64,000 bases of DNA from contig CM022670.1 of assembly GCA_012295275.1 (NCBI GenBank), positions 42,222,001 to 42,286,000 on the forward strand, in the 5' to 3' direction. The position numbers and the translations under genes are program-made. The DNA comes from Chrysomallon squamiferum. Lineage: Eukaryota; Animalia; Mollusca. Position 1 is the stretch's first letter, and each line of letters begins with the position of its first letter. A model generated the notes under the pieces. That model worked only from the letters and a program-made list of their open reading frames with translations. It ran no database searches and was not told where the DNA came from. Positions 5,223 to 64,000 of this stretch are shown here, piece after piece.

Positions 5223-8200
5223 TTACATCAGAGGTTGTCGCACTTCAAAACATCCAGTTCCACAGTTTACAACACGCCCAGTCACAATCCTGGAAGAGGG
5301 AGATTTCAAGAAATCAACTCCATTATGTAAACTGGCTTTAGCAAGAAAATTCATTGTTGTTTCAAATGTCATTTTCTGGAAGGGAGAAGCATTTGTTTCC
5401 ATGGCTATGCGGTTGAGAGCCTTGTAGCTGCCCTCGAATGTCATGTAGTCTGTGAGCAGTGAGAGGTGTCTGTAGTCGACATTGATGCCGTATGCACCAA
5501 ACACATTCTTGATTTCCTGAAACAATTCATTTCATATTAGCTTTTACTGAGAAAGTGAGAGAGAGGAAAGGATAGCTGTGACAGCAACAGGCAATGAAAG
5601 AAAAGATGAAAACTGCTTAAACAAAAAACTAAAACAAGAAAATTACTTTGATGAGAACTTTGGCAGCAGCTTCAATTCCGTAAATCTTGGCAAATGCATG
5701 GACATCATTTGTGTAGAGCTGATTAACATCCAGAATGTCTGCATATTTGTACATCTCCTGTAAAACACAAGCTTTCATTATTGTTATTTAAATGTGTGAT
5801 AACATGTTGTTAATTATGTTGTTACACAAGATGATTGGATAGGTTGTTTGTACATCTTTACTACAAGTATCTTGTTTCTGTGATGATTTTCGCTTGGTTC
5901 TTACTCTTATGTTCATTTTATCACTGCAGCTGTATAAATAACAAAGCCAATATTCTGATAGTTTGTTGATGATATGTCTGTACTAATGTGGAGGTGTTTG
6001 TAGTTCTCCAGTACCTGTATGTTGACACCCTCTGTTTTCAAATGCCACTCTGACTGCATGTTTCGTTTCTCATCAATGAGAAAAGCTCGAGAAATTCCTG
6101 CCACTTGATGAATGACAGCTTTCCTTGCGAACCCCTCTATCAGAGACGAAAAGTCAATCTTGCTGTTTGTCAGTCCATACTGTGATAACAGATAAAGACA
6201 CAAATTAATATTTTTACTAAATTTAAGCACATTAATATATACCTACTGATTAAATAACACATATTTCTACTTGAGGAATAATATTTGTGGATCCAAGGTA
6301 AAATTCCTGTACTCTATTTACTTGTAAATATCAAGGTAAAATACCTGTAAATTATTTACTTGTAAATATCAAGGTAAAATACCTGTACACTGTTTACTTG
6401 TAAATATCAAGGTAAAATACCTGTACACTGTTTACTTGTAAATATCAAGGTAAAATACCTGTACAGTATTCACTTGTAAATATCAAGGTAAAATACCTGT
6501 ACACTGTTTACTTGTAAATATCAAGGTAAAATACCTGTACAGTATTCACTTGTAAATATCAAGGTAAAATACCTGTACACTGTTTACTTGTAAATATCAA
6601 GGTAAAATACCTGTACACTGTTTACTTGTAAATATCAAGGTAAAATACCTGTACACTGTTTACTTGTAAATATCAAGGTAAAATACCTGTACACTATTTA
6701 CTTGTAAATATCAAGGTAAAATACCTGTACACTGTTTACTTGTAAATATCAAGGTAAAATACCTGTACAGTATTTGCTTGTAAATATCAAGGTAAAATAC
6801 CTGTACACTATTTGCTTGTAAATATCAAGGTAAAATACCTGTACACTGTTTACTTGTAAATATCAAGGTAAAATACCTGCAGAGTGAGCTCGCACCACCT
6901 GGACTTGTCTACATCAAACTTGTAGTCACAGATGAACTGAGACATCTGTTTCACTTTCTGAAAATAAACAAAACTATAACTGTTATATTTCACTTTGAAA
7001 ATCTGAAAATATCAAATTGGCCAGATTTAATGATAAATAACACAGAAAAAGAAAATTAAAAGTTTAGAAAAACAATTTTTGAGAGAAATATTATTTATTT
7101 TGTTTTTGAAACCACACTTTTACGAAAGAGACATGTTCAAAATGTTTATGTCTTTAAGATAGTTGTGCACACCTGCTTGTATGACACATGTAAAGAAGAA
7201 AGTGAATATCACAGTCATCTAATAACTGTTAGCTAACCCACACACACAGACTAATAACATAACATGTGAAAACGCTACTAAACAAATATTAATTCAATCT
7301 AAAATAAATCTTTCAAAATGTAAAACTAAATTAACATAGGCAAAATAAATTTAAAAATGTAGAATAAATTTTTCGAAATATGGAAAATATAATACAATGT
7401 TGCAAATTATATTTTAAAAAGATGTAAAATTAAATTAAGTAAAATAAATTTTAAAAATATGTAAGTAAATACAAAAATGTAAAATAACTAAAAAATGTTG
7501 AATAGTTTTTTTTTTTAAAAGTGACTAATTTACAAGAATTCTGTTTTCTACAGCCATTTGTTTTTCTTTAGTCATTTCATCCATCTGTCCATCATTCTGG
7601 TTTTCCTCTTCTAACACAACCTCACTAGCATCATTCCCTGCGATCAAGTCATTGTCATCTGCAAAAACATTTTAAATAAATAAAATTGTAAACAAACAAT
7701 TCAAGATTTACACAGACTGGAAATAGTGCTTTTCCTGCAAAACATTAAAATTTGTGAGAATAATAGTTTTTTATTATTTTTTTTTAATCTGTCTAAATAA
7801 TGAAATTTCTCCATGTTTCATGTTACTAATGTGGGGTGTTTTTAAAACAAATATAAAGTTTAAAATGTCACTGTCTAGAAGTTTTACACATTTCATGTGT
7901 TGTTAATGTATTCTAAAACCTTCGCTGTCTACAAGCTCCTTCTCCTGCTCCTCCCCCTCATACTCCTGTGACTCCTGCTGACGTTTCTGATCTCGGACAG
8001 CAAGAGATGAACCCTCCTCCTCGACTTCCACATCGGACGTCTCCCCATCATCATTCCCTCCCACTTCCTGTTTTTCAGCAGGTGTATTCGAGCGCACTGC
8101 ACCAGTGTTCAGATGTCTGTGATTTTACAAATAAAACAATTCCGACTACTTCATAAACATCTAACAGTTTCAACAGAAAACATATCTTAAAATATTTGTC

Positions 8201-11200
8201 TTTTGTGTTTTATTTTTCTTATTTATTTAATTTTTTTTGTTTATTGCTTGTTGGTTTTTCAGATAAATAACATTCCACCTTTTATTTCTTGATAAATACA
8301 ATTTACAACAAAATAAAATGTTAGCAGGGGCTGAGAAAATAATTACCAAAATAACAGTTCATTAGAGAAGGTGATTTAAAAGAATTTATTTATGTGCAAA
8401 GTAAAATAGTTTGTCAAGTCATTACTGTTTGAAGTAACCACCAACACAAGCTGAAAACAGATTTTTGACTATTCAAACTATGTAATATCACTTTTACCTA
8501 CTAAGCTTTTAGTTAAATTATTAATGATTACTTAAAACTTTAATCAAAATTAATTTTTATAATTATTATTTTGAATTATATTTATAACAGGAACTATAAC
8601 GGTGATATATGACCTTGACCTAAGATTTCTAATTTCTTACTGAGCTTGCTGTAAGGCTTTCATCTTGATTTTGATGTGTTCAATGAGCTGACCAATCACT
8701 GATGATTCCATTCTCTCAATCACCTGCCTTGGTTTCAGACAAACACTCTCTTTGTACACTGCATGTGGCAGAAACACAAATTTCACCCGAAACTTCCTGT
8801 GCCGGTCACTGAGTGGAAAACATTACACAATAAAAACAGTATTACATTTTACATTAGTTACATTACACAATAAAAACAGTATTACATTTTACATTAGTTA
8901 CATTACACAATAAAAACAGTATTACATTTTACATTAGTTACATTACACAATAAAAACAGTATTACATTTTACATTAGTTACATTACACAATAAAAACAGT
9001 ATTACATTTTACTATCACATTTTACATTAGTTACATTACACAATAAAAACAGTATTACATTTTACTATCACATTTTACATTAGTTACATTACACAATAAA
9101 AACAGTATTACATTTTACTATCACATTTTACATTAGTTACATTACACAATAAAAACAGTATTACATTTTACATTAGTTACATTACACAATAAAAACAATA
9201 TTACATTTTACTATCACATTTGACATTAATTACATTACACATTAACATTTCAATAAAAACAATATTACATTTTACTATCACATTTTACATTAACATTTCA
9301 ATAAAAACAACAGTACACTTTACTATCACATTTTACATTAGCATTTCAATAAAAACAGTATTACACTTTACTATCACATTTTACATTAGTTACATTACAT
9401 ATTAACATTTTAACAAAAACAGTATTACACTTTACTATTACTACTACTGTTACATTACACATTAACATTTTAATAAAAACATTATTACACTTTACTATTA
9501 CTACTACTGTTACATTACATATTAACATTTTAACAAACAGTATTACAATTTACTACTACTGTTACATTACATATTAACATTTTAACAAAAGCAGTATTAC
9601 ACTTTACTATTAGTACTAGTTACATTACATATTAACATTTTAACAAAAACAGTATTACACTTTACTATTACTACTACTGTTACATTACATATTAACATTT
9701 TAACAAAAACAGTATTACACTTTACTACTACTACTACTGTTACATTACATATTAACATTTTAACAAAAACAGTATTACACTTTACTATTACTACAACTGT
9801 TACATTACATATTAACATTTGAACAAAAACAGTATTACACTTTACTATTACTACTACTGTTACATTACATATTAACATTTCAATAAAAACAATATTACAC
9901 TTTACTATTACTACTACTGTTACATTACATATTAACATTTTAACAAAAACAGTATTACACTTTACTACTACTACTACTGTTACATTACATATTAACATTT
10001 TAATAAAAACAGTATTACACTTTACTACTACTACTACAAAAACTGTCCCTACTTGTTTGATAAAATGTTTAAACTGAAGTTAAAATGAAGTAAGACTGAG
10101 GTAAAGAGAAATTAACAACTTACAATTTAGACTTGCCACTGATAGATAATGTTTCACACACCTCCACGTCTTGTAGAACCTAAATGAAAACATAGCTAAT
10201 TAAAACAATCCACTAATTAAAAACACAGTTTATGTCAAATTTTTATATACAGCTTCCCAAGTTTCAGTATGAATACCTCTATATACCTGTAACTTTATAC
10301 TTAAATGTTATTACAAAATCTAACAATGCTGATTATTTTTTCACTAAATGTACCTTTATTTATCTGTAAAGTTAGACAGTTATTAGCAAATAAAATGGGA
10401 TTTACTTTCCTAACCATATTTTTCCACAGGGATTTTAAAGTTTGTCTGATCATAGAAAAATAACACTTTGGAGACTATTCAGAAATTCAACAAATATGCA
10501 GCACACTATTTTCACTTTTTTTCTGTAATTACTTTGGATTACACAACCTGACCTCATTTTTATAATTACCTGAGATAACACAAATTTATTTATTTTTTTA
10601 TTTTATTTTTTTATATAAATACCTGAGATGACCCAATTTTTACTTTTCTATAATTACCTGAGATAATGCAATTTTTACTTTTTTCAATAATTACCAGAGA
10701 TGACCCAATTTTTACTTTTCTATAATTTCCTGAGATAATGCAATTTTTACTTTTTTCAATAATTACCAGAGATGACCCAATTTTTACTTTTCTATAATTA
10801 CCTGAGATAATGCAATTTTTACTTTTTTCAATAATTACCAGAGATGACCCAATTTTTACTTTTCTATTATTTCCTAAGATAATGCAATTTTTACTTTTTT
10901 CTATAATTACACAAGATGACCCAATTTTTACTTTTCTATAATTTCCGGAAAAAACACAGCTTTGCTTACTTTTTCTGTAATTCCCTGTGATAATTCTTTT
11001 TTCATAATAACATAACTTTTACTTTTCTATAATTACCTGAGATAACACAGTTTTAATTTTTTTCTATAATGACCTGACATAACAAATGTTTTTTCTATAA
11101 ATACCTATAAAGTTTTTGTTTTTTTTATATAATTACCTGAAATAACTTTGTTTAGTTTTTATGTAATTACCGGAGATATCAGAACTTTGTTTAGTTTTTT

Positions 11201-14200
11201 TTGTAATTACCTGAGATAACACAACTCTGTTTAGTTTTTTTTGTAATTACCTGAGATAACACAACTCTATTTAGTTTTTTTATGTAATTACCTGAGATAA
11301 GACAACTCTTTTTAGTTTTTTTTTGTAATTACCTGAGATAAGACAAATCTATTTAGTTTTTTTTGTAATTACCTGAGATAACACAACTCTATTTAGTTTT
11401 TTTATGTAATTACCTGAGATAAGACAACTGTTTAGTTTTTAAGTAATTACCTGAGATAACACAACTCTGTTCAGTTTTTATATAATTACCTGAGATAACA
11501 CAACTTTGTTTATTTTTATGTAATTACCTGAGATAACACAACTCTGTTCACTTTTTTTTTAATTACCTTAGATAACACAACTCTGTTCAGTTTTTATATA
11601 ATTACCTGAGATAACACAACTCTGTTTAGTTTTTTTTGTAATTACCTGAGATAACACAACTCTGTTCAGTTTTTATGTAATTACCTGAGATAACACAACT
11701 CTGTTTAGTTTTTTTCTGTAATTACCTGAGATATCACAACTCTGTTTAGTTTTTTTTGTAATTACCTGAGATAATACAACTCTGTTTAGCTTTTTTTGTA
11801 ATTTCTTTGCCTGGTGCAGAGCTCCTGAGATGTTTTTAACTGTGATGTCCATGGACGGAGTCTTCAGCATTGCACTGGCCACCATGATGATTTCTCGTAG
11901 CCGAGGGATACCAAGAGTAACATTCATTTCTCCACGACCAGCAAAGTGGAATGTGTTCAGGGTCATTTGAGTGGATGGTTCACCAATAGACTAAAAATAA
12001 CAACAAAATTTACCTGAAGTAATCTACCATATAACACAATTTCATCTGTAAATACCGCCCAACAAATTTGTACCTGTATATACCATTTAACATAAATTTA
12101 CATGCAACCATCTATGTATTTGTATCAAAATTAGGCAAGCTTATAATTTTATCTTTCTGTTTTCTATGTCCATTTTGTTATCAGAATCCAAATCTTTTTC
12201 TGTTTCTTTTTTCTTCTTATGGTGTCCGTTAAATGCGTATTTCTCCTCACTGCTCTTTTCATGACATTATCAAATATTCTTAACTTCTTGTTAAACTGCT
12301 TTTTTATCAAGTTTTGTAAAACAGTTTTTATAACAAACACTTCCAACATTTTATTAAACACATTTTTTATTTATGCCAACTTAACACTTTTTTTTTTTGC
12401 TTTTCTCTGCTTCAACTTGTTTTTTTACATAATTACATTACTCGTAATCTAACTGTTCTCTGAAAGTGTTGTTTTGATGTGATTTTTGATCTGTTTTCAC
12501 CGTATGTGTTTACAGATATCATTTTCATATTCATTTACTTTGCCTCTCAGTATTTAACCTTTCAGACTTAATTGTGAGGATAAAATCAGTGAAGTTTTAA
12601 TGTGTTAATTACATATGATGATCATTTGAGAATGAGAATTGTAATAAAGATTTTAAAAGTAGATTTTTTGTCAGATTCAGTTTCTGATCTCGGACAGCAA
12701 GAGACGAACCCTCCTCCAAAAAACAGATTTTTTACATCTGACATTAGAACAACAGGTTGAGAAACATCTAAAATAAAAAATTATTATAATATACTGGAAA
12801 CACTGCTAATATACTGATAAAAACATTTATATTAAATGGCACTTTAAATGGAGTTTTTGAAATGGAGTTTTTGAAATGTATGCTACTTGAAAAATTCCAC
12901 AAGGTTTGAATCCTGTAAACTCCTATAAACAGAATGACAACATAATCCAGTTTTCTGTTGTAATAAAACTAAATTTCTTGCTGTTTTAACAGATTCACCT
13001 GTGCACACAACAGACCGACCGCTTCCCCCGGCTCAGCCATTGATCTGAGAACTTTGGTATTCAACATCTCAGTGAAATCTTTAATTGTGAAATCCTGTAG
13101 ACCACTGCCTGGAAACTGCTTCACAATCTACAACACAAAACACATGATCTGTTACACTATTAACAAATTCTACAACACAAAACACACGATATATTACACT
13201 GTTAACACAATCTACAACACAAAACACATGATCTGTTACACTGTTAACACAGTCTACAACACAACACAATCTGCAAAACAAAACACATGTTACACTGTTA
13301 ACACAAACTACAACACAAAACACACGATATGTTACACCTGTTAACACAAGCTACAAAACAAAACACACGATATGTTACACCTGTTAACACAAACTACAAC
13401 ACAAAACACATATGTTACACTGTTAACACAGTCTACAAAACAAAACACACAATATGTTATACTGTTAACACAAACTACAACACAAAACACATGATATGTT
13501 ACCCTGTTATGGCTGACCTACCTGAGTGAACTGGTTTTCGTCAAACTCTGAAATTAAGACTGGTATTTTCTCAGAAACAACACTCGGGTGTTCTGATGGT
13601 CTGTACACAGACATGACAGGGTCAGGACATCGGTGACTGTGACGTCCATATCTGCAACAAAACACTCTTCTAATTAGAAAATTTACGTTTTAGTTAATTT
13701 CTGTGCTTTATGCTTATTATAATAAAAATCTGTGCCAGAATATTTAAAAAAACAAACATTTCGAAACTAAAAATATTTGTACAATTTTCCATAAACTTGT
13801 ATTTATTAGTCTGAATCATCTTTTTGGTAGCCTTTTAACTGAAACCCTACAATTTTGTTTTTAAATCATTAAATGTTTCATAATTTTATTTTTAGAATGA
13901 GACATTTTCAAGAATGTTTCTTCAACAAGCTCTGGACATTTTTTACAGGCGAAATTTTCATATATTAATGCACAGAATTCTTGAAAAATGACATCATTTA
14001 GTAAACCAGTCCGTTTATTATGTTTAAAACTCTATAAAAAAGCCAGGAAAGGAGTTTCTATACAATGTCGCTGACCTGAGTCTCTCTTCAGCTGAAAGCG
14101 ACCTCCATGCTTTCTCAATGATGTTTGCTGCTCTGGTACGTCCACGCTGTGTGTCAGTCGTTGTCCTGTCATCATCAGCTGTAAAACTGTGTAAGTGTTC

Positions 14201-17200
14201 TCTGTAGAAAGTGAGGTACCCAGACTGACGCGAACCATCAACATCACAGTGCTTCCTCCTCCAGCTGTGTATCTGTCATAAATCATCTTATTAAACTAAA
14301 TACACACTAACAAAACACTCATTCACACATCAACATACTCAGAAAACTTCATATACTTAATTATTTCTTGAAAATGCTAAAATTAAATATTACAAATAAA
14401 AAAATTACTGTTAATATAATATGAACTATTTTATAACAACTACAATACCAAAGCTACCGCTTTGTACACAGTCTGTCACATTTTAATATTGTAAACTATT
14501 TAAAACAATTATTAAATTTTGCTACATATATTGTGGAAACAAAGTTTAACCTTCTTGTTTAGTTTTTTAATTATTTTTCTTGAGGCAGGTTTATCATGCA
14601 TGGAGTTATATGTGAGATTGTTTCTGTTCCACACTAGAAAAGAAAACTGCTTAGGAGTGATGAATGGAGTCTTTATCACATCCAACCCATCTTCTCCGTA
14701 GTAGAACTGAAAATAAAACAAATAATTTACAAGTGTTTATAATACTTTCACTTCTAGTATTAACCCTTTTACTTTCACTTCTAGTATTAAACCTTTCACT
14801 TTCACTTCTAGTTTTAACCCTTTTACTTTCACTTCTAGTATTAACCCTTTCACTTTCATTTCTAGTATTAACCCTTTCACTTTCATTTCTAGTATTAACC
14901 CTTTCACTTTCATTTCTAGTATTAACCCTTTTACTTTCACTTCTAGTATTAACCCTTTCACTTTCATTTCTAGTATTAACCCTTTCACTTTCACTTCTAG
15001 TATTAACCCTTTCACTTTCATTTCTAGTATTAACCCTTTCACTTTCACTTCTAGTATTAACCCTTTCACTTTCATTTCTAGTATTAACCCTTTCACTTTC
15101 ATTTCTAGTATTAACCCTTTCACTTTCACTTCTAGTTTTAACACTTTCACTTTCACAGCTAGCATTAACCCTGAATGCCTATGCATTAATTTGTTAGTTG
15201 AAACTACAAATGTGAAAATTCATGGAACAATGGCTGAAATAATTAAACTGATGCACAAACAAATGAAAATAAAATAGAATTTTAAAAATAAAGCATAATA
15301 AAACATTAAGAAACAAATCTAATATTCATGTAATAAAACCAAGAACAAGTAAAATATTAAAATTATTTTTGTCTCTTGCAGTTAGAATGGGAAAAAATGG
15401 TTTTTCAGTGTGTATTAAGAAATAAACCTGAACAATGCTGCCATCACTGTCTCTCACTGTGAGATCATAGGACACCATCAAACCTTCGAGATGTTTAACA
15501 AGACAACGTTGTAGGTATCCACTTCGACTTGTCTTCACAGCAGTGTCAACCAGACCCTGTTAACAACAACAACAGCAGCTCTACTTAAATAGTAACAAAA
15601 TTTGTATTTACAAAAGTTTAATTAAATTAATATTTTAAAATATCAGATTTACAAAAGATTTATTTATCATCTACAAGTTTACAAACCTCTCTTCCTGCCA
15701 TGCAGTGAAAGAAGTATTCAGGGGGAGCAATTCCTGTGAGGAATCGCCCAGTGACAAAACCTCCTGCTCTGGGGGTCGGGTCGTAGGGGAGAAATGAGGG
15801 CAGGGCTCTTCCCGCCATCATTAGAGGAGGTCGTCGTCCTTCCAGTTCAATCTGACCCAGAAGACAGGAGATCTGCATGCAGTTGACCTGAAAAAAGTAT
15901 TTTATGAATGAAACAAATAACAACACTCATAATGAAGTTTATCTTTTATTACTGTTTATGTACAGTGAATGAGAGGGTTAAAAGATTTAGCATTTTGTCT
16001 GATTTTTATTGAGCCAAATTCCACTTCATGTTTAAAATTAAAATTACAAATAGTTTTGTTTTATTTCAAATATAAACTGAGATACTGAATGACGAAAATG
16101 ATAAGTGAATGTTTTGTCAAAGAAAACCTCGACTTGAACTGTAACAATTGTCATCAGGCAGTAATAAGACTTTATGTTTCAAAGAAAACTGACTGTATTC
16201 AAACATATTAGACTCTGAAAATGTAAAATTATCTAGGACTGACTGTATTCAAACATTTCAAATTCAGATGTAAAATTATCTAGGACTGCCTGTATTCAAA
16301 CATTTTAAACTCTGAAGATGTAAAATTATCTAGGACTGCCTGTATTCAAACATTTTAAACTCTGAAGATGTAAAATTATCTAGGACTGCCTGTATTCAAA
16401 CATTTTAAACTCAGAAGATGTAAAATTATCTAGGACTGACCGAAGAACCTTTCGCCCCTGACTGTGCCATCAGTTGCAGATTGTTGTAGGGGAAACTTTT
16501 GTGTAGACCATGCGGTATGCAGGCTCTGAAAATAAAGTTTATAAACGTCACATACAAGAAACACAAAAGTCATTTTAAAACATTAGCGCTAAAGACAAGT
16601 TCTTCAGGAAAACTCACATTACTTTCGTCAACACATTAAACTAACTTCAAACTTATTTTACAGGCCTATGTAAACCTGGTAACAGGCCTAGCCTAGATGG
16701 GAAATGTAGGCTCCTATTTCAAACTGCTTATTAAATGTTCTGTACATGGACAAAAGGCCCTAAAAAGTCTTGGTTACCTTCTCCAATCCATTCTACCTAG
16801 TTATCTGTCATATATTCATGTTAAAACTCTAGTGGATGAAAACAAAACAACCCAAATTAAAATAAATTCCACTTTGTTTTTGTTTAATGACCAATGAAAA
16901 TTAAAAACTCACTTTGCAATGTTGTTTTGAATCTCATCTGTTTTTGACTTCATGGCGAGGTCAAGTTCTCTCATCTGTCTGTCATCTCGACTCAGGTGTG
17001 CCTCTCTCAGCTTCCTCACCAAGTCTGCTTGGGAGATACCAGCCTCAACATCCAACGCCTTCACTACAGCATCTACAGCACAGTTGGGAGAAGCTGCAAT
17101 GAAATTCTTTCTCTGTTTGTCAGCCTAAATAATAAAGAGATTCCTTTATTTTACAGAACACACAAACTGACTTACACAGACAAACAGTAAGCACAGAGAA

Positions 17201-20200: not shown

Positions 20201-20873
20201 TCCTCTCACTGTTAACCATACACCAGACACCATGTGATCCTGAATCAAGCCAGCCAATGGGGTGCCATCTTTAGGAACCAAATACTGGTTGTCTGTACTA
20301 GCTGAAATTAAAAGTTTATCAAAACTGACATGATTACAGTGTTTTCATTACAAGCTTCATGTTATTTCAAAGTAACATCTTATGAAACATGATGTAAAAA
20401 TGTTCATTAATCGCTGTGTCAACTATTCCCACCAACTGGTTTTATAACCACCTTTTAAGAAACAAACCAATATTTAGTAATTTTCCTTTTTTGAAAAATA
20501 AATTTGAACATGTTTTATGTATCTGAATGCTTTGTGATTTTCACTGTTCAAAAAACAAAACACAGTGGTCTCTCTCTTTGTAAAAGGAAGTGGGCATAAC
20601 TGGTTCAAGTTAAATGAAGGGATTGTACAGAAAATGTTCATAGTACAAGCACATTGAACAATGTTCAAATTACTTGTTTATCAAAAATACTCCTATAAAT
20701 AATTGCATAAAATGCATTAACTATTAACAAGTTTATTTTACTTGCAATTAAATAAAATCAAAGTGTCTGTTGCCAGTGAGCTTTGGTTTTTCTGTGAATT
20801 AAATTCTTTACAAAATAATATACATATACATAAATATACATATATACATATACATATATACATATACACATAC

Positions 20874-20910
<37 letters not shown>

Positions 20911-21019
20911 TATATATACATATATACATATAGATATACATATACATATACATATATATACATATATATACATATACATATGCATATACACATATACACA
21001 TATACACATATACACACAT

Positions 21020-21064
<45 letters not shown>

Positions 21065-28247: not shown

Positions 28248-28294
<47 letters not shown>

Positions 28295-34634: not shown

Positions 34635-34686
<52 letters not shown>

Positions 34687-52600: not shown

Positions 52601-55600
52601 ATGACTGAAATAATATTAATTGTTATTATTGTAGAAATGATATAATATTTATGTTTTTGTTGTAGAAATGATGTGATATTGATCTGTTTGTTGTAGAAAT
52701 GATATGAAATTGATCTGTTTGTTGTAGAAATGATGTGATTATTGATTTGTTTGTTGTAGAAATGATGTGATATTGATTTGTTTGTTGTAGAAAGATGTGA
52801 TATTGATATGTTTGTTGTAGAAATGATGTGATATTGATTTGTTGTAGAAAGATGTGATATTGATTTGTTTGTTGTAGAAAGATGTGATATTGATCTGTTT
52901 GTTGTAGAAAGATGTGATATTGATTTGTTTGTTATAGAAATGATATGAAATTGATCTGTTTGTTGTAGAAATGATGTGATTATTGATTTGTTTGTTGTAG
53001 AAATGATGTGATATTGATTTGTTTGTTGTAGAAAGATGTGATATTGATATGTTTGTTGTAGAAATGATGTGATATTGATTTGTTGTAGAAAGATGTGATA
53101 TTGATATGTTTGTTGTAGAAATGATGTGATATTGATTTGTTGTAGAAAGATGTGATATTGATTTGTTGTAGAAAGATGTGATATTGATCTGTTTGTTGTA
53201 GAAAGATGTGATATTGATTTGTTTGTTATAGAAATGATATGAAATTGATCTGTTTGTTGTAGAAATGATATATTGATTTGTTGTAGAAATGATGTGATTA
53301 TTGATTTGTTTGTTGTAGAAATGATGTGATATTGATTTGTTGTAGAAATGATGTGATACTGATTTGTTTGTTGTAGAAATGATATATTGATTTGTTTGTT
53401 GTAGAAATGACTTATTACAGATGGGAGCAGTGACTGCAGTTCATCGTATTGTAGAAAGTCTGCCACACTTCATCAGTCCTTACTTGCTAGAAATCACAAA
53501 ACAGGTAATTACGGGATGTTTTTTAAATAAAACTGACTCTGTTTATGTCAAGGTCACAATAACTGTATCAGTTTGATAAATACAGTTTAGTTTGAGTAAG
53601 AGTTTACAGTCTGCTGGCATCAAGTAGCTTATCATTTGCTGATGTTGAAAATAAATAACACAGTTCCTTGTGATGTCAGTTGATAATGTTTAGTTCAAGC
53701 CTGACATGTCTGAAATGTAACAGATATATGTGTGTGTAACATGTATATCTGTGTAAGAGAGGTATGTGTATGTGTGTAACAGATTTATATCTCTATGTGT
53801 AAGAGATGTATGTTATGTAATAGATGTACGTGGGTGTAACATGTATATCTGTGTAACAGATGTGTGTGTCTGTAACAGACGTACTTGTGTCTAAGAGATG
53901 TTGATGTTTATTTTTCAGGTTACCTGTAACCTGGTGAATGAGGGAGGAATTACACAGAAAACACAAGTACAACAAAGAGTACAGTCCATCAGGTAACATT
54001 TTTACACAGTGAATTTATTTATATTTTATCATTTCAAACTAGAATTAATTGTGTCAGTTGTTAGTTACAGGGACTGCACATACAATTGTGTATATGTGAT
54101 TTATTTTTACAATGACTATAATTGATGTGTATTTGTTCTTGCACTGACTATAGTTAAAATTGTTTATGCATGTTATTACAATGACTAGGTACAGTTGTTT
54201 TTATGTGTAATTAAAATTACTATATTTAAAATTGTTTGTGTGTGTTATTGCAGTGATTACAGTTCTTTGTGTGTGTCATTATAATGATTAAAATTGTGTG
54301 TGTTATTACAGTGATTATAGTTGTTTGTGTGTCTTATAATGATTAAACTTGTTTGTTATTTCAGATACATACTGGCTACAATTGTCTCTACTCGAGTTCT
54401 GCTACCAAACATAATATCATGTTACGAGTCTGCTGCAGAAAACATGCAGGTAATTTGAACAACAGTCATAATAACTGTAGACATGTATTTTGTATTGTGT
54501 TACCTTCGGTGTTGTTTTATTCGTAGAGGTGAATTCTTATTAACTGTGTATTATCTGCATTTGTGTATTGTTTTGTCTTACTACTGATATGTATTGTATA
54601 ATTACAATGTTTGTTGTTCAGTGCATCAATACAGATGTGTATTGTATAACTAGATTTATATTGTTACATTAATGTTTGTACTGTATTGGGTATTGTATAA
54701 TTACAGGTATGTAATGTACTGTGTATTGTTTAATTACAGGTGTGTGTTCCCAGTGTGTTGTCACTGTTAGAAGAACACATCAGGTCAATGAACAAAGAAG
54801 ACTTGTCCAGTTTTCACAGTCAGCTTCTCTCATTCTTCTTCTCTGCTCTGTCATTCCGCGAACTTCACCCAGAGGTAAACCATTTCATAACAAACTAGTT
54901 AGTTTCCTTATTAACAATATTAAACACTGACTTGTTTCTTCTGTAAACAATTTCATATCAAACTAGTTAGTTTTCTTATTTAACAATATTAAACATTGGC
55001 TTGTTTTCTCTGTAAACAATTTCATATCAAACTAGTTAAGTTTTCTTATTAACAATATTAAACACTGACTTGTTTCTTCTGTAAACAATTTCATAACAAA
55101 CTAGTTAGTTTTCTCATTAACAATATTAAACATTGGCTTTTCTCTGTAAACAATTTCATATCAAACTAGTTAGTTTTCTTATTAATAGGATTAAACCCTG
55201 ACTTGTATTGTATCAGCTACTATCAGTTTTATTAGTTTACAAAGACATAGACAGTAAATTTAATTTTCTCTGTGTTTCAGGCCAAACAGTCAGTGATCAC
55301 TGTGATTGAATCAGCAGTGATTGACACAATGATCACGATGGTGATGAAGATGTCAGAAGCTACTTTCAGGCCGATGCTGTTCAAGGTAAACACAAATACA
55401 TTAACAACACAGAAATGTGGTGATTAAAACAAATAACTTTAGCAGTTTCTTTTTAATCTAACAATTTAATTATCTTTTTATTAAAATAAATATTATTTAT
55501 TCTTGCTTATTGAAGTAGTTTGTTTGACGCAGGTTTTAAAGCTTATAAAATCTGTGAAGATAAAAAAATATATGTTTATTTTTTTCAGATTTTTGACTGG

Positions 55601-57745
55601 GCCACACGGCAGGATGGAAGCAGAGATAGAGTTCTTGTTTTCTATCAGCTTGCAGACAGGTAATAAAATGAAAACCAGCAGAGTCAAGGAATTTGATATC
55701 TAAAAATTCAGACCTGGAAAACGTGGAAATCTATAATTTTTGATAAAAAGACATGGATATTCACGGAAAATTCATAATAATGCATTCAGGAGGGGAAATT
55801 TTTTTTTTTACTGATAAAAAAGTTATTTTAAAATTGATAATTCTGTTGATCATCTCAAATTCTGATGCAGGTTTGGGCTTGAATTAATCATACAACTGGT
55901 ATTTGTATAGCTGTTACACAGTATGTAGCAACAGAGAATTAGCCATGTACAAGTTGTATTTGAAGTGCTTTTACATCACACACTAATAATAGGCACAGCT
56001 GAGAACAAGTCAACTAAGTGTTTTATTTGAGTTTATTCTACGAGTTCTTAAATTTTAATTAAATACTCAAAAGTCCATGAATTTTCTAGAAAACATTACA
56101 TGTCATGGAAAGTAGTTAAATTTAATTTTCGATAATGTATCAGTAGTAACAGTGATAATAATAGCAACAATAATAAAATCATGATACGTAAATTTTAGAA
56201 ACCCCACTATTTTATTACTGTTTTTATTCAGACTGGCAGGCAAACTGAGGAGTTTGTTTACATTGTTCGCTGGTCACATCATCAAACATGCAGCTCAAAC
56301 TCTTGACAACAACAACATTGCCAAAACAGGTTTGTCATCAAAGATGGGGATAGGAAAAAGAATGTTTAATGTAGATTTATTTTATAAAAGTTTATTGATA
56401 TAAGTGGGGGTTTTTCAATTTTATAAACAAAAATTCAGTTTTTATATATATTTACTGTAAATATAAATTTAATTATCAAATTTTCATAGATATTATTGTA
56501 TTTTTGAATTTTTGTGTATATATTTCCTTTAATTATAAACCAGTAATTCAGTTTTCAATTTCAAGAAACTGAAAACTGAAGTTAAAATGTTTTGTAAATT
56601 TATTTATTGTGGAACTTTGAACAGTCATTTTAAAATAGCAAAAATGAAGTTTGAAATATGTTACAGATGTAAAATACTTTGGAAGTGGAAAGAGTGCTCA
56701 GCGTAAGAGCTGTCTGCTCCTGAACCTGGTACTTGACTGTCTTCACAAGTGTTTTCTCTACGACTCTGAGGGTTTTGTTAACAAGGAGAGATTTGACAGC
56801 TTGATGCAGCACCTTGTTGATCAAGTATGTGAAAAAATAACGTCTTAAAAAGAACATCACAAATTAATTTAAATGCAGATTTGTCATTAGATTTTAAAAT
56901 AGATTGGTTTACACAGTGAAAATGTTATTGTATTTCAGATAGAGAATACACTATACCACTTTGAAGAGAGGATTTCACAACATTTAGTTCCGTGTATTGC
57001 TCAGTTTGCAGTCGCAGTTCAAGACGACTCTTTGTGGCGATCACTCAACTATCAGATCTTACTGAAAACTAGGAACCCTGACCACAGGGTAAGTTTTTGT
57101 TGTATCGACTAACATCAGTTAGACAAGAATCCCAATCAGCAGTTTCTAAATTCTTCACTGAAATTTTACACATTTGTTTTAAAGTGATAATACAAAATTT
57201 ATTGCGCAGATAATTTTGTTATTATTATTTTTTTAAATAAAACTAATTATTATATAAATTACAGTGAAGTTAAAAATGTGGGGTTTTTTTCAGGTTCGAC
57301 TTGCAGCACTTGATGTGGTCGATGCATTCAACAAGAAACTTGGTGATGACTTCATGTCACTGTTACCAGAAACTGTTCCATTCCTCGCAGAGTTAATGGA
57401 AGGTCAGTTTAATAATGTCCACACCCTGTCAGTCATTTATTTGTTAATTAAACCGCACACAGAACAGGACAAAGATTTATTTTTTACTTCTCGAACAAAG
57501 TTATTTTGTAAATTGAAAAGAAAAAAATAGAGTTTATGATCAGTGACATTATTTATTTCATTAAGCAGTGATAAAACTGTTAATGCTTCATTAAATAACA
57601 ATAATTTAAAAGGTGTTATGTTAGAAATGATGTTTAAAAATATTGTTTTGTTTCAGATGACAATGAGGAGGTGGAGACAAGGTGTCAGGCTGTGATATCA
57701 GACATGGAGAAAACACTTGGAGAATCACTACAGAAATATTTCTAG
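29830..57745 (+). CDS. HEATR1: HEAT repeat-containing protein 1 (UTP10/BAP28), SSU processome t-UTP subunit, 43 coding exons
   Basis: N-terminus MTSLAKQLQRL...LLFNPVDAA...GLEELEGIDPSF...LSPYFLLRPAHKALEWLIYRYHI, internal LLHNIMSVFTFMG...RQDDSYSFHVI, BP28CT-like SEATFRPMLFKIFDWA, and C-terminus LLPETVPFLAELMEDDNEEVE...LGESLQKYF*. Exons: 29830-29971, 30393-30609, 31559-31703, 32124-32225, 32465-32725, 32983-33068, 33322-33582, 33841-33945, 34186-34405, 34990-35079, 35406-35491, 35738-35907, 39255-39385, 39860-40024, 40205-40373, 40763-40917, 41134-41323, 41734-41912, 42329-42526, 42639-42872, 43443-43574, 43913-44004, 44380-44523, 44952-45055, 47569-47690, 48037-48165, 48882-49136, 49410-49715, 50197-50364, 51298-51441, 51828-51980, 52306-52478, 53405-53504, 53919-53992, 54365-54449, 54740-54874, 55281-55385, 55589-55659, 56232-56329, 56667-56824, 56939-57088, 57294-57402, 57657-57745. 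Confidence 0.96.
31008..31581 (+). repeat. Tandem array of about 30-34 bp made of the HEATR1 acceptor plus exon head (TTTATAG|ATATCACATTCAGTTTTACAATG)
   Basis: About 17 copies; the last one is the real start of exon 31559-31703. Confidence 0.92.
34387..34597 (+). repeat. Tandem array of about 56 bp made of the HEATR1 exon tail plus donor (CCTGTCACACACAGACAAG|GTCAAA)
   Basis: 4 copies, the first being the real donor at 34405/34406; a (CT)n tract follows at about 34637-34682. Confidence 0.92.
35865..38800 (+). repeat. 76-bp tandem array, about 38 copies, of 43 nt HEATR1 exon tail plus donor plus 33 nt of intron
   Basis: Unit ctgaaacattctcagacagatgtcatacagagagctagtgaag|gtatttagaaactagattagttacactagaaca; the first copy is coding (LKHSQTDVIQRASE). 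Confidence 0.96.
39370..39790 (+). repeat. Tandem array of about 28 bp made of the HEATR1 donor (ATACAACACATA|GTGAGTATACAG)
   Basis: About 15 degenerate copies starting in exon 39255-39385. Confidence 0.88.
43170..43355. mobile_element. Possible fragment of a non-autonomous DNA transposon (MITE-like) in a HEATR1 intron
   Basis: Non-tandem segment of higher GC containing tttcatcaaaatc and ending ..gatttgatatggaatgaccc, reminiscent of invertebrate MITE ends. No partner inverted repeat or target-site duplication was found; this is recognition by style only. Confidence 0.3.
45080..47545. repeat. Minisatellite of about 33 bp (ctgtactagaaacacagcattagtcacacatac) filling a 2.5-kb HEATR1 intron
   Basis: About 75-80 copies with 29/31/33-bp variants; it is the source of the VTHTCTRNTAL ORFs. 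Confidence 0.95.
48450..48870. repeat. 36-bp minisatellite ending about 10 nt before a HEATR1 acceptor
   Basis: actaaaactataaattcatattacaatactgtatac, about 11 copies. Confidence 0.92.
49679..50060 (+). repeat. 46-48-bp tandem array of the HEATR1 exon tail plus donor (..TTCATTGCACAG|GTAAAC)
   Basis: About 8 copies; the ORF reads IHLFSSKQFIAQVNIVIHLFSSKQFIAQ. Confidence 0.93.
52620..53410 (+). repeat. Tandem array of about 27-33 bp made of the HEATR1 acceptor (TTTGTTGTAG|AAATGA)
   Basis: About 26 copies; the last is the real acceptor at 53404/53405. It explains the antisense ORF 52582-53466. Confidence 0.93.
54875..55205 (+). repeat. Tandem array of about 67 bp beginning at the HEATR1 donor GTAAAC
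   Basis: About 5 copies of gtaaacaatttcataacaaactagttag... Confidence 0.88.
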
Positions 57746-58003: not shown

Positions 58004-61000
58004 CTAGCGATAACTTCTGTTTTTCACATTAGCTTTAGCATAAAAGTGAACACCAATTTTCTTCTGTCTAGCTTCCCTTTCCATCTTTCTTCTCTGAAAA
58101 AGAAATACAAAATTATTAGAAAGAAGAAACAGTGAGTTTGTGAAATAATGATCTTTTTATCTTAAGACAAAAATGTTATTAATATATTTTAACACAAAAC
58201 CCGATTCTGTTACTCCTTTTAGTTATATTATATAGTTACACTTTACAGTTACGTGTTAGTTACACATTTGAATGTTACCTGTTTTCCTGTCACTCTGACA
58301 AGTTCGTCTTCTTCCAGTGATCGTTTTCTTGGTTTCTTTTCTACACTGACAACAGCAGGGATGATATCAACGCAAGTCGCAACTTCTGTATCGTGCATCT
58401 CGTAAAAACATCCATCACCTTGTGAAAACAGCATGTGCACACAGAGTAAAAAACTGTATGTTAATACTTCATAAAAACTAAAATGACAACTAAAATGACA
58501 ATTACTTAGTTTTCCCTCACAAAAATCAGCAGCCAGATAAAATTAGCAAAATGAAATATTTAAAAAAAAAAAAAGTTAGTATCAAGTATTTTAAATTTAC
58601 CGCAGTAATTTTTAAAAAAATATTTAAAATGTACTACAGTAATTTTATTAGCAAGCAGTATAAAAACAAGTTTTTTATAGTTACTAGCAGTAATTATAAG
58701 TATTAATAGTTTACAGCTAATTTAGAAACAAGTAGTTTAAGTTTACCAGTTTTCTGCAGTTTGTTTTTGGCTTTCACTTTTGGTGTTAATGGGGTCACCA
58801 TCCACGTTCCACTTGGCGTCTCTTCGATGTCAACATTCTCATCACTCGTTTGTCTGCGAGGGTTGAAATTTATTTTCTTTAAGTTCTTAACTCTTAGTCT
58901 TGATTTCTTCTTTCCAGTTACATTCTCACTTTTCACAGAGCTCTGTGTTCTTAATCTGCTCATTTTACTAACAGCCAGTTCTCTCCCCTTAGATAATCTT
59001 TTGTTTAACAATGACTCCAATTTATTCTGTTTCTGTTTGCTTGCTACTTTCACTTCATGTTTTGCTACATCATCCTCTGTGTCATCTCCTTCAATGACAG
59101 AGTCACCATTATCATCATCTGTATCATCATCATCCACATCACTCTCTGTTTGAGAAACTGATTTGACATCTTCTTCTTCAAACTGAGGTTCAACATGAAT
59201 TTTACTGAAGTTCTGTTTTACTTTCGGTTGAATTAATATATTAACATTTAAAACTTTTTTCTCTTCACCTTTATCATTAATGTTTGTTTCTACATCACCA
59301 GTGCTGTCATCAGTCAAAATTTGTGAATTAATTTTGTCAGCTGTTTTCACATTTGAAGTCTGAGAAATACCTTTGTCAGCTGTGTTCACATTTGAAATTT
59401 CTGTTTTTGTTTCTTCAGTTACAAGCTGTGAGTTTTTAGCATTGTCAGATTCTGTTGTTTTCACATTCTCAGATGTAGTTAGACATGTTTCCTCTTTGTT
59501 TTCTTCTTTTTTGTCCAATTCATCCTGCAACACAAATAATGAACACTTAGCCCTGTTGTACACATTAGACTGGTTCATTTTGTACAGTGTTACACAGCAA
59601 AAAACAAAGCAGTTTACATCTAACCCAGTTCTGACAAAGTATAAAAAGACAGTTCAGCTCTGACCCAGGAAGTCTAACGAAATATTTAAAAAAAAGTCTA
59701 CCTGACCCAGGAGGTCTAACGAAGTATTTAAAAAAAAGTCTACCTCTGACCCAGGAGGTCTAATGAAGTATTTAAAAAAAAGTCTACCTGACCCAGGAGG
59801 TCTAACGAAGTATTTAAAAAAAAGTCTACCTCTGACCCAGGAGGTCTAACGAAGTATTTAAAAAAAAGTCTACCTCTGACCCAGGAGGTCTAACGAAGTA
59901 TTTAAAAAAAAGTCTACCTCTGACCCAGGAGGTCTAACAAAGTATGGAATCTTTCCTCTCTGCCAGTCATTCAGTACCATTTTAGCAACAGTGCTGAGAT
60001 CAGGTTCTCCTTTCTGCAACACAAAGTTTATAAACACAGAAGTTATAATCTAATATGTATATCTCACTTGTACAGTATTAATTAATGAAACTGGTAATAT
60101 ACAACATATAACATATTTTGTAATATGTAAAAACTACATAACTACTACTATATTAATGTGTAACATCTCTATATAACTACTCTGTTACTATGTAACTGTG
60201 TAACTAGTGTAATATTTATAATTATACATAAACCACTTATGTGGACAAAACAACACAAATTTTTGTTTTGACTAACTAATATTACAGAAACTGTCAACAT
60301 GAGCTTGTATTACAAGTTTTACTAAAAGCAGGTTACTAGTGTATTGTTAGATATTTTCTATACTGGAACTAGATGTCTTTCAACTAGGAGAACAGACCTT
60401 GAGCAATCTGCCTGACTTTCTCGCTAGTTTTTCTAAAAAGTCCTCTGTACTTGTCCAGTCATCAATGTTGTACGTCTTTCTTATGTATTCCTTCTTTGCA
60501 CGTTCCAACACTGCTCCAATGTAGTCTTCTGGAGATCTAACATTTTCCACCCGCACCTATAATAATACCATATTTACAATACACAATTTGTGTTTTACAA
60601 TAATATAAGACTTACAATACTCAATTTGTGTTTTACAATAATATGACTTACAATATACAATTTGTGTTTTACAATAACCTAAGACTTACAGTATGACCAG
60701 TATAGAAAATAATAGTTCATTATGTTTACAAAGCGACAGTTCATCAAGTGTACAGTCACTGTTCATGAACTGTACAAAGTCACAGTTCATTAAATGTACA
60801 CTCACAGTTCATTAAGTGTACAAAGAGAGTTCATTAAGTGTACAAAGAGAGTTCATTAAGTGTACAAAGAGAGTTCATTAAGTGTACAAAGTCACAGTTC
60901 ATTAAGTGTACAGACAGTTCATTAAGTGTACAAAGCCACAGTTCATTAAGTGTACAAAGTGAGTTCATTAAGTGTACAAAGCCAAAGTTCATTAAGTGTA

Positions 61001-64000
61001 CAAAGTCACTGTTCATTAAGTGTACAAAGCCACAGTTCATTAAGTGTACAAAGCCACAGTTCATTATGTGTACAAGAGTTCATTAAGTGTACAAAGCCAC
61101 AGTTCATTAAGTGTACACAGCCAGTTTATTAAGTGAACAAAGACAGTTCATTAAGTGTACAACAGAGTTCATTAAGTGTACAAAGCCACAGTTCATTAAG
61201 TCTACAAAGCCACAGTTCATTAAGTGTATAAGAGTTCATTAAGTGTACAGTCACTGTTCATTAAGTGTACAAAGTCACAGTTCATTAAGTGAACAAAGCC
61301 ACAGTTCATTTAGTGTACAAAGCCACAGTTTATTAAGTGAACAAAGTCACTGTTAATTAAGTGTACAAAGAGAGTTCATTAAGTGTACAAAGTACAGTTC
61401 ATTAAGTGAACAAAGCCACAGTTCATTTAGTGTACAAAGCCACAGTTTATTAAGTGAACAAAGTCACTGTTAATTAAGTGTACAAAGAGAGTTCATTAAG
61501 TGTACAAAGTACAGTTCATTAAGTGTACAAAGTCACAGTTCATTAAGTATACAGTCTCTGTTCATTAAGTGTATAAAGTTACTGTTCATAAATGTACAAA
61601 GTCACAGTTCATCAAATGTACAAAGTCACAGTTCATTAAATATACAAAGAGACAGTTCAGAGTTCATTAAGAATAAGAGTCTAGAGAAATGCTCACCACT
61701 CCTTTCAGGACAGTGTCAGTCTGAGAGGCCCCAGTTGGGTACACAATTCCCGGACAGTCAACCAGAAATATTCTCTTCATTAATGTGATGTACTGCCACA
61801 CCTAACAAAATAAACTTTTGTACATTTACATCTTAAATAAAATTACTCTGTAATATCACAATGATCTATGATTTCTTTTCCATTCTCAAATTTGTCTATA
61901 AACAACTTTGTTTACTCTGTGCTGAACTTACCTTGATTTACACAAAACTTCTGTCTCACTCTTACCTTGATTTACGTAAATCTTTGTTTCAGGCTCACCT
62001 TGGTTTACACAAATCTTTGTTTCGGGCTCACCTTGGTTTACACAAATATTTGTTTCTCTCTTACCTTGGTTTACACAAATCTTAGTTTCTCTTTTACCTT
62101 GGTTTCTCCTGCTATTGGTGCCACTTTGCAGACTTTCTTGGATCGTAGAGTGTTGATGATGGAACTTTTGCCAACATTGGGGTAGCCAATGAAACCAACA
62201 CTGATTTGTTTCTTGTCCATGTGCAACTAGAAAAAGACATTTTTGTTTTCATAAAACCTCATTTTCTTCTACCTGATGTTCCCCACGGTTAAATGTTATG
62301 TTTAATAAATCTTCTAAAATTTTATTTCCACATTTTATTTTTAACAATGGCTACATTTTTTAATTTGATGATAAAAGTTTACTTTTCCAAACTGTCTGAG
62401 GAGGTTTATCAAAGCTCCTTTCCCAAATGGGTTTGTGATGCTGGCGTGGAAGGCCATTGTTGGATGTTCTGATGACAAAATAGCAACCCACTTTTGCTGA
62501 AATTTCAAAAAAACAATTATTTTATAACTTTACTGTTATTTTCAGTAACACAAATTATTTACATTCAGAGATATCTTGTATCCAAGACATTCATTGTGTT
62601 AATTCTTAAATAAAACTAGTGACTTACTATGACCGTGTTAATTGTTAAATGTAACTAGTGACTTACTATTACTGTGATTTGTTAAATATAACTAGTGACT
62701 TACTGTGACCCAGACAGGAACAAGATCGACTTTGTTCAGAACAAATATAATGTGTTTGTGCGATTTTTCCTTGGCGATGTACTTCTCCACCTGGTAACAG
62801 CGGGTACCGAGTGGGTCCCGTGCATCTAGAACCTGTACCACCACATCAGACGAATCAATGACCTGAAAAAAAGAAAACATTGTCAACTTTACACAGCTTG
62901 TGATGACTACCTCAAACACCATCAATGAAATGTCTTTAAAAAAACACATTAATTACAATTTGTTACACAGAATATCATCAGTTACAACTGTAACACAACT
63001 TGTGACAACTACCTCAAACACCATCAATGAAATGTCTTTAAAAAAACAACATTAATTACAATTTGTTACACAGAACATCATCAGTTACAACTGTAACACA
63101 ACTTGTGATAACTACCTCAATTATCATCAATGAAATCAGAAGTGTTTCTGAAATGTTTCATCACTTTAAATATTGGATGTATTAAAAACGTTTTCATTCA
63201 TTATTTGTCCAATTTGAAATGATACTTAAGAATAACATAACAAATGTTTTGTGATAAAATTATAAATAAATAATAAAATTAAAATTTATTTTACTTTATA
63301 CAGTTCATTCCATATCCGTTTCGACTGTCCCGCTTTGAAAACAATTTCAGGTTCCTCATCCCTGATTCCGGTATCTTCTAGTTCAATGTTGCTGTCTTTA
63401 GATTCATCATACTTCTCCACTGAACTCGATACTTTCTCTATCAGACCCTGGGATTTTTTTTTTTAAAAACAATACATTTTCAATCAGCAAATATTTTTAT
63501 AATTTAAAATTTATAATTCTTTTCTGTTATTATATACAGATATTTGTATCACCATTTCTAAGTCTGATGTGTGAAACAAGTCATAGTTCTATACTTGTAA
63601 AATATGTGTGAAACTAGTTAGTTTTATATTTGGACCATGTGAAACCAGTTAGTGTCTTGTAAACATTATAACAAGAGTACTGTACAAACCTGTACATCTG
63701 TCACAGACAAATTGGGTTTCTTGCGATGAGCTTTCTTTCCAAAAGTATTTTCAAAACTTTCTGTGTCAAGAAGATGCATTCGTGAATGCTGGAAAGAAAT
63801 ACATTTAATAATTTATTACGTTAAAAACAATTTGGTATTTTTTTCTTTTTTTAAACTTTCAATAATTTTTAAAAATAGGAAATTAAATAAATCTTAGATG
63901 AGTTTGGTTACTATGGTAATAATGTATAAACCTTTGCAGTTTCATTAAGAAGTGTAACAGGAAGTTTAGTCTGACTCATGACAACTTTGTACGGGTCGTT
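58004..64000 (-). CDS. GNL2: Nucleolar GTP-binding protein 2 (Nog2/NGP1), circularly permuted GTPase; 5' exons lie beyond the window
   Basis: Exons: 63932-64000 (partial), 63690-63788, 63295-63447, 62704-62862, 62383-62496, 62098-62226, 61697-61801, 60398-60556, 59918-60013, 58747-59524, 58279-58418, 58004-58093. Motifs: [30 protein letters not shown]4 NKVD, G1 [21 protein letters not shown]3 [28 protein letters not shown], and C-terminal [16 protein letters not shown]. Confidence 0.95.
59658..59945 (-). repeat. 42/44-bp tandem array of the GNL2 exon tail plus donor (..AGACCTCCTGGGTCAGAG|GTAGAC)
   Basis: About 6 intronic copies of ctctgacccaggaggtctaacgaagtatttaaaaaaaagtctac. Confidence 0.93.
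60715..61670. repeat. Intronic minisatellite of about 22-24 bp (agttcattaagtgtacaaagccac)
   Basis: About 40 copies in a GNL2 intron. Confidence 0.93.
61926..62106 (-). repeat. Tandem array of about 33 bp made of the GNL2 donor (AAACCAAG|GT)
   Basis: About 5 intronic copies of accttg(g/a)tttacacaaa next to the exon end at 62098. Confidence 0.88.
62890..63140. repeat. Tandem duplication of about 105 bp in a GNL2 intron
   Basis: actacctcaaacaccatcaatgaaatgtctttaaaaaa..., about 2.5 copies. Confidence 0.8.

Follow-up and report, generated by a model that had tools for sequence, protein, structure and literature searches.

The stretch of DNA analysed here (the window) comprises 64,000 nucleotides of the Chrysomallon squamiferum genome (contig CM022670.1, positions 42,222,001 to 42,286,000, forward strand). 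It carries three ribosome-biogenesis genes in a row, whose introns contain many local tandem duplications, half of them touching a splice junction. The genes are as follows.

5223..28517, minus strand: POLR1A (RPA1), 33 exons, 1710 aa, 53% identical to Haliotis RPA1 (P0052)
29830..57745, plus strand: HEATR1, 43 exons, 2132 aa, whose C-terminal 833 aa share 74.7% identity with Gigantopelta aegis P0242
58004..64000, minus strand: the last 12 exons of GNL2 (the 5' part lies beyond the window), identified by homology and spliced alignment

The start codons of POLR1A and HEATR1 stand head to head, 1.3 kb apart (28517-29830), and HEATR1 and GNL2 lie tail to tail with a gap of about 260 bp. For GNL2 and HEATR1 the best named matches are those of Gigantopelta aegis (conserved GNL2 exons are 88-96% identical), in which their linkage may be conserved. 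Gene models were constructed with a purpose-written spliced aligner, followed by manual adjustment of a few POLR1A exons and of exons 10-19 in HEATR1. Note that HEATR1 exons 10-19, which hold junctions 35907, 39385 and 40373, align poorly with homologues and were set by hand using GT/AG ends and frame continuity. The three models contain 85 introns, all of the GT-AG type (85/85), and their translations have no internal stops. The window has a GC content of about 30%, with 43% in exons versus 26% in introns, and the median intron length is 270 bp once arrays are collapsed.

Junction arrays were detected using Tandem Repeats Finder (TRF) and a self-match scan of the window, and the unit and copy figures given below come from both. 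The scan considers offsets of 18-400, gave 0 matches in three local shuffles, and had 146 of its 1703 segments discarded as microsatellite-like. The original prediction, which was made from the letters of the sequence, named 22 splice junctions, and all of these coordinates coincide with exon ends in the stop-free models; the self-match scan finds 21 of them and TRF adds 31703. They represent 18 of the 85 donors and 4 of the 85 acceptors, with units of 28-124 bp. Each is listed here with its junction, together with two old copies that were absent from the original list.

6294..6879, minus strand: array over donor 6877, 38 bp x 15 with 3 exon nt and 14 exact decoys
10557..11803, minus strand: array over donor 11766, 40 bp, 38 exon nt, copies young beside the exon and decayed deeper
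13122..13509, minus strand: array over acceptor 13127, 42 bp x 9, 6 exon nt
16188..16440, minus strand: array beginning at the GT of donor 16441, 50 bp x 5, without exon bases or decoy donor
20115..20237, minus strand: single decayed copy over donor 20187 with a unit of about 85 bp and 51 exon nt
22322..22536, minus strand: array over donor 22504, 60/54 bp x 3.6, 33 exon nt
24833..25155, minus strand: array over donor 25114, 56/46 bp, 42 exon nt
25828..26038, minus strand: array over donor 26030, 36 bp, 9 exon nt, the remainder AATA-rich
26542..26705, minus strand: single decayed copy over donor 26671 with a unit of 124 bp and 35 exon nt, intron part matching too
28196..28385, minus strand: old duplicate of the POLR1A exon 1 end at donor 28349, with an offset of 157 bp, additional to the original list
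31024..31586, plus strand: array over acceptor 31559, 30/34 bp x about 17, 24-28 exon nt
31693..31781, plus strand: decayed array over donor 31703, 33 bp x 2.6, found by TRF and by self-match only at the loosest threshold (T=14)
33555..33787, plus strand: old duplicate of the HEATR1 exon 7 end at donor 33582, with an offset of 192 bp, additional to the original list
34386..34600, plus strand: array over donor 34405, 56 bp x 3.8, 20 exon nt
35865..38800, plus strand: array over donor 35907, 76 bp x 39 with 43 exon nt and 38 exact decoys
39364..39796, plus strand: array over donor 39385, 28 bp x 15.5, 22 exon nt
40365..40489, plus strand: single decayed copy over donor 40373, unit 92 bp
49678..50063, plus strand: array over donor 49715, 47/48 bp x 8, 38 exon nt, first decoy in frame
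52621..53410, plus strand: array over acceptor 53405, about 31 bp x 25 with 6 exon nt and 23 exact decoys, spliced at the last copy
54677..54745, plus strand: two-copy duplication over acceptor 54740, 33 bp
54875..55206, plus strand: array beginning at the GT of donor 54874, 69 bp x 4.8, without exon bases
59658..59945, minus strand: array over donor 59918, 44/42 bp x 6.5, 28 exon nt
61927..62105, minus strand: array over donor 62098, 33 bp x 5.4, 8 exon nt
62596..62710, minus strand: array over donor 62704, 37-39 bp x 3, 7 exon nt

The units had been described as straddling or starting at real junctions, and splicing as having to ignore dozens of perfect decoy sites. Exon bases are included at 20 of the 22 junctions; at 16441 and 54874 the arrays begin at the GT itself, and their copies are not decoy donors. 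The range of ages that had been noticed is real, extending from arrays with identical junction 20-mers (38/38 copies at 35907 and 14/14 at 6877) to the single decayed copies at 20187, 26671 and 40373. Decay runs from proximal to distal at 11766, but a polarity of decay shared by all arrays was rejected, since no trend is common to the 14 arrays compared. The old copies at 28349 and 33582 retain a match in their exon part, and their intron part matches no better than shuffles.

Besides the junction arrays, which are real, the introns contain repeats that the original account left out. The self-match scan yields 46 clusters, of which 4 lie outside the three genes and 1 is wholly exonic; the remaining 41, one of them a compound that was divided in two, give the 42 intronic blocks analysed below. 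These blocks occupy 37 of the 85 introns and have units of 24-124 bp. Seventeen touch a donor, and 15 of these include three or more exon bases; 4 blocks span an acceptor, and 21, that is half of the 42, are interior; two interior pairs each represent a single lineage, so that independent interior events number nearer 19. The most conspicuous interior arrays are as follows.

8820..10037, minus strand: two arrays of a single lineage, 40 and 60 bp, the pair stopping 11 nt short of an acceptor
18414..19616, minus strand: array of 37/49 bp, 56 nt past donor 19673, unit with a strong sense donor motif
45079..47530, plus strand: array of 33 bp x 74, filling HEATR1 intron 24 from 23 nt past the donor to 38 nt before the acceptor
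48240..48868, plus strand: two arrays of a single lineage, 36-39 bp, the pair stopping 13 nt short of an acceptor
60714..61659, minus strand: array of 24 bp x 39, 37 nt past a GNL2 donor

The sense donor in the 18414-19616 unit scores 11.5 (consensus strength), and extending the exon to it hits a stop. The claim that these duplications inflate the introns holds: extra copies account for 39% of the intron sequence, which shrinks from 43,585 to 26,659 bp when they are collapsed. The claim that the units are mutually unrelated and arose locally also stands. When 43 units are compared, 8 match outside their own block, 4 of these being the two same-lineage pairs of interior neighbours, and the other 4 matches look AT-rich or low-complexity. 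A transposon or introner family is therefore rejected, as no unit family is common to the 43 units.

Whether junctions are hit more often than chance allows was assessed by uniform placement with arrays collapsed, the ranges given here being set by the assumed footprint and by whether each block is confined to its own intron. Donors are touched by 17 of the 42 blocks versus 5.7-10.4 expected (P 1e-5 to 0.015), or by 15 if three exon bases are demanded (P 9e-5 to 0.05). Acceptors are spanned by 4 versus the same 5.7-10.4 expected, and either junction by 21 versus 11.3-20.7 (P 0.0009 to 0.53). In terms of density, donor-touching blocks are 2.1-3.9 times as frequent as interior ones (P 6e-5 to 0.03), and acceptor-spanning blocks 0.5-0.9 times, with no significant enrichment. 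A fully automatic rerun at six thresholds gives 10-20 donors versus 3.5-10.2 expected (P 2e-6 to 0.02) and 2-4 acceptors. Thus, in the comparison with random placement that the original prediction had itself named, donors exceed chance, but the overlap with junctions as a whole is not robustly above it; the robust signal is the donor excess. The reported bias of donors over acceptors is likewise borne out, at 17:4 (P 0.007).

An exonic 30-mer test, which overlooks arrays with little exon, points the same way: the adjacent intron holds a better copy of the exon end than any control intron at 15/85 donors and 2/85 acceptors, whereas for exon segments 60-90 nt inward this is so at only 0/72 on the donor side and 1/71 on the acceptor side. 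The blocks also keep close to exons. None of the 42 lies more than 100 nt from any junction, versus 4.7-10.9 expected (P 0.004 to 3e-6), and 10 of the 21 interior blocks stop no more than 50 nt from an acceptor, versus 3.8-5.5 expected (P 0.002-0.03); note that the distance bins in both comparisons are post hoc.

The blocks hold 118 decoy donors with at most 1 mismatch in 9 nt, 95 of them exact, and 46 decoy acceptors with at most 1 mismatch in 11 nt, 29 of them exact. Evidence on splicing comes from assembled RNA contigs, which represent dominant forms and lose rare isoforms, and which cover 11 of the 22 junctions, the longest arrays not being among these. Nine sequencing runs under three study codes match parts of 21100-28200; runs X7 and X9 are taken as RNA on the ground of their spliced contigs. 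At all 11 covered junctions the exon-proximal site is the one joined, which agrees with the expectation that splicing ignores the decoys, at least in dominant transcripts. In 21100-35800 (runs X6, X8 and X7) the proximal site is used at 22504, 25114, 26030, 26671, 31559, 31703 and 34405, the evidence at 26030 and (from X7) at 31559 consisting of contig pieces; here 15 of 32 joints were listed, and three DNA joints at repeats were left out. In 49300-55420, for which the joint table is complete, 9/9 spliced joints are authentic, including those at 49715, 54874, 54740 and 53405. At 53405 the last of about 25 acceptor copies is used, with the RNA joint present in three runs, and the success of the last copy points to exon definition or exonic enhancers. 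No decoy joint occurs in the complete table of 49300-55420 or among the 15 of 32 joints listed for 21100-35800; two joints, 28675-31535 and 51833-54483, were rejected as spurious because they have non-GT/AG ends and sides of 20-21 nt. Three array bins of 49300-55420 have zero RNA depth; this is an absence from contigs and was given no weight.

The first decoy, if used, would introduce a frameshift or a stop at 16 of the 18 donors and would break the frame at 4 of the 4 acceptors. The statement that the reading frame survives solely through the exon-proximal site therefore holds at most donors but fails at 49715, where the first decoy adds 16 codons in frame; at 31703 there is no GT at the tested offset. 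Because first decoys mostly break the frame, rare leaks are candidates for nonsense-mediated decay. At 54677-54745 the decoy acceptor AG abuts a strong donor-like GT (score 11.4), resembling a recursive-splicing point, and no use of it appears in the complete joint table of 49300-55420.

Several repeats of this type have been described elsewhere, and the suggestion that the pattern is undescribed is not supported. As presented in PMC3087553, the "mirages" of amphioxus are minisatellite-like duplications of both exon-intron boundaries with units of 10-160 bp, whose copies often keep GT/AG and leave regular splicing unaffected; their mechanism is called unclear, and they are considered possibly general in cephalochordates. 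They occur in Adh3 and the globins BflGb6 and BflGb9, to which PMC3902484 adds PGBD5 and troponin C, and length polymorphism between haplotypes or cells is reported for them (PMC3087553, PMC3902484); concerted evolution within a cluster is another of their features. The arrays in the window resemble mirages in that their units span host exon-intron boundaries, with exon bases at 20/22; in that the unit size of 28-124 bp falls within the range of 10-160 bp (PMC3087553); in that both the 5' and 3' boundaries are hit (18 donors and 4 acceptors); in that many, but not all, copies keep GT/AG, as the 118 donor and 46 acceptor decoys attest; and in that splicing is undisturbed in the dominant forms seen as contigs (11/11 covered junctions). 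They differ in that the host is a mollusc, in which 18/85 donors and 4/85 acceptors of three adjacent genes are involved, and in that a donor excess is measured, whereas the portions of PMC3087553 and PMC3902484 consulted contain no enrichment test.

Another related case is the 37-bp variable number tandem repeat (VNTR) in intron 7 of human F7, which has 5-9 copies, the first unit spanning the exon-intron boundary; in minigenes the identical downstream donors are functional yet silent, and the most upstream one is chosen (PMC1557585). At the donors covered by RNA contigs, the arrays in the window likewise have the exon-proximal site chosen over copies downstream. Unlike F7, which is one locus with donors only, they occupy many loci, hold up to 38 exact decoys, and include acceptor arrays in which the last copy wins. 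The human repeats that modulate splicing in PMC10078293 have, in the sections available, no bearing on the origin of arrays, and no genome-wide enrichment study of junction-spanning repeats was found in the open-licence literature, which is a weak negative.

A resemblance to intron gain by tandem genomic duplication had also been proposed. In that process, as outlined in PMC3443670, an AGGT-containing exonic segment is doubled and a new intron is born. The arrays share with it the local tandem duplication that copies splice-like signals; here, however, existing junctions have been copied into old introns. Intron gain was rejected as an origin, since 0 of the 42 blocks reach both ends of their own intron. 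In addition, all 8 GNL2 intron positions compared are shared, with their phases, by the animal locus L015, including those of donors 62704 and 62098; the position of 59918 is present in L015 as well, but at the query end.

In our view, with odds slightly better than even, the arrays are mirage-type minisatellites, formed by local tandem duplication over exon ends in a genome rich in duplications and with short introns, and the donor excess reflects which duplications survive through retention and selection. Most simply, they form a dense, donor-biased case of a known kind of repeat, with survival as the account of the excess. Short duplications would arise throughout the genes, some of them growing by slippage or unequal exchange, and those wholly within exons would mostly be purged. 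A duplicated donor would be almost harmless, since splicing favours the donor furthest upstream, a rule tested for human F7. A duplicated acceptor would more often be harmful, so that few would persist, and the survivors would mostly carry little exon; 3 of the 4 surviving acceptor arrays include 6 exon nt. Copies beside the exon may also persist longer, because deletions must spare the exon and splice signals, and coding constraint would hold one copy in place. The old copies at 28349 and 33582, which are recognisable by their exon part alone, show a second survival bias, and this fits a frozen exon copy. That arrays always extend into the intron, which had been offered as a feature of the pattern, is expected of survivors. 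Survival also agrees with donor strength and the share of exon-terminal AG being alike at array donors and other donors, and with unit breakpoints that vary by 0-51 nt into the exon.

A toy model was used to evaluate retention. Births are uniform, and a two-copy duplication is lost by deletions that spare the exon and the first 6 and last 30 intron bases. When deletion is the sole loss, donor-spanning copies reach 2.4-3.7 times the interior level; with an equal, position-independent loss added, the donor figure becomes 1.4-1.5. Copies just before the acceptor reach 1.1-1.9 times, and those deep in the interior 0.74-0.93 times. Since exon-sparing deletion thus yields a donor excess of 1.4-3.7, overlapping the observed one, a splicing-coupled hot spot is not required, and the assertion that a boundary-tied mutational mechanism is needed is not supported.

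Several points weigh against survival as the whole explanation. The deletion laws of the toy model are assumptions, and with the additional loss its 1.4-1.5 falls below the observed 2.1-3.9. The model does not predict the empty intron centre (0/42 blocks beyond 100 nt), and it keeps acceptor-spanning copies even longer than donor-spanning ones, so that strong selection against the former must be assumed; yet at 53405 the right acceptor is chosen past 23 exact decoys. Moreover, the donor excess remains in the highest-scoring blocks (10/26 versus 3.5-5.2 expected), where decay should matter least.

The main competitor, which was the idea of the original prediction and which we consider possible but clearly less probable than survival, is that exon edges are mutational hot spots, the 5' splice site most of all, and that duplicated acceptors are selected against. 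Proposed causes are transcription- or spliceosome-coupled pausing, R-loops, or nucleosome-edge breaks on the GC-richer exons. This idea accommodates the absence of blocks beyond 100 nt and the crowding of 10/21 interior blocks within 50 nt of acceptors, the donor excess in genes of both strands and among high-scoring blocks, and the contrast between exon-end copies at 15/85 donors and 0/72 for segments further inward. On the other hand, retention by itself can give a similar donor excess, the distance bins are post hoc, the data come from one window with three genes, and the breakpoints are not fixed at the junction. A stronger form, which we regard as unlikely, makes the 5' splice site itself a hot spot for tandem duplication of 30-150 bp through a transcription- or spliceosome-coupled lesion; introns would then grow from their edges, with older copies pushed inward and dozens of exact decoys tolerated at a fifth of donors. 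An RNA-intermediate template would put every breakpoint exactly at the exon end; this was rejected because unit breakpoints scatter over 0-51 nt into the exon.

It is improbable that the extra donors are kept for their usefulness, whether as U1 sites that aid exon definition or block premature polyadenylation, or as alternative or recursive sites. U1 can protect transcripts, and the 95 exact decoy donors are intact, but such identity is also given by homogenisation. Array donors are as strong as others (median 7.2 versus 6.9, P 0.88), so that compensation for weak donors was rejected; a sense donor motif occurs in 6/21 interior arrays versus a background of 20% (P 0.14); and the joints listed include no decoy joint, with 16/18 first decoys breaking the frame. 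AG-ending exons as a safety net for re-splicing were also rejected, since exon-terminal AG is not enriched at array donors (11/18 versus 40/67). A bias of the DNA itself, by which duplications prefer GC-richer sequence or donor-like motifs on either strand irrespective of splicing, seems very improbable. Two big interior arrays do carry a strong donor motif, in sense at 18414 and in antisense at 45079; however, interior blocks have a median GC of 0.25 versus 0.27 in other intron DNA (P 0.63; n=21, low power), and the antisense motif occurs in 5/21 versus a background of 19% (P 0.17, also of low power). Finally, we give almost no credence to an assembly artefact. Short-read contigs do break at arrays, and the copy numbers of long arrays therefore rest on the assembly, but DNA contigs carry the copies: run X2 has a contig of 22391-23175 with 0 differences from the window, including two decoy copies and the exon, and the contigs of run X4 (49941-50470 and 53367-54936) carry decoy copies. 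Contigs of these two runs, which have separate study codes, differ from the window at single-nucleotide polymorphisms; in addition, array copies have diverged from each other, and no listed DNA joint cleanly skips an array.

Whatever their origin, the arrays offer many closely spaced natural tests of how splice sites are chosen outside mammals, in which the first donor faces up to 38 exact decoys and the last acceptor beats up to 23. They also put a figure on the part of local duplication, as opposed to transposons, in building introns, 39% of the length in the three genes, and they serve as a warning that gene predictors and short-read mapping may pick decoy sites in such genomes. If the edge concentration is mutational, it would tie splicing or exon chromatin directly to the birthplace of duplications, and it would answer the origin of mirages, which PMC3087553 calls unclear.

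In a comparison with metagenomes, a scan using a GNL2 exon retrieved 80 loci, the best at 79% identity. The 46 loci of at least 3 kb with usable introns contain 154 putative introns (68 kb) with 2 blocks, 0 of them on a junction; these loci are distant and probably short-read contigs, in which repeats are lost, and the figure does not serve as a control.

Some further repeats were observed in the window. The acceptor unit of HEATR1 exon 3 (31024-31586) resembles the acceptor of exon 6 (32962-33002) with 81% identity over 42 nt (E 2e-4), a likeness that is probably due to chance, the DNA being AT-rich. Arrays outside the three genes, at 1-324, 1237-1421 and 4284-4828, are excluded from every count; some lie in or near a plus-strand gene at about 379-2347 and others are intergenic, and one starts about 23 nt past a likely donor. 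The region 21100-21590, in the 1459-bp intron 11 of POLR1A, shows high DNA depth in run X2 and many loose contig ends, which suggests a dispersed repeat. The sole wholly exonic duplication at the main threshold (59333-59396) is 39 bp, in frame, and located in the low-complexity GNL2 exon 10. A piece of POLR1A exon 28 (12680-12717) recurs at 7983-8020 in intron 24, 4.7 kb away in the same orientation, with 37 of 38 nt identical; it is the only distant match within the whole window, and it looks like a templated insertion rather than a tandem copy.

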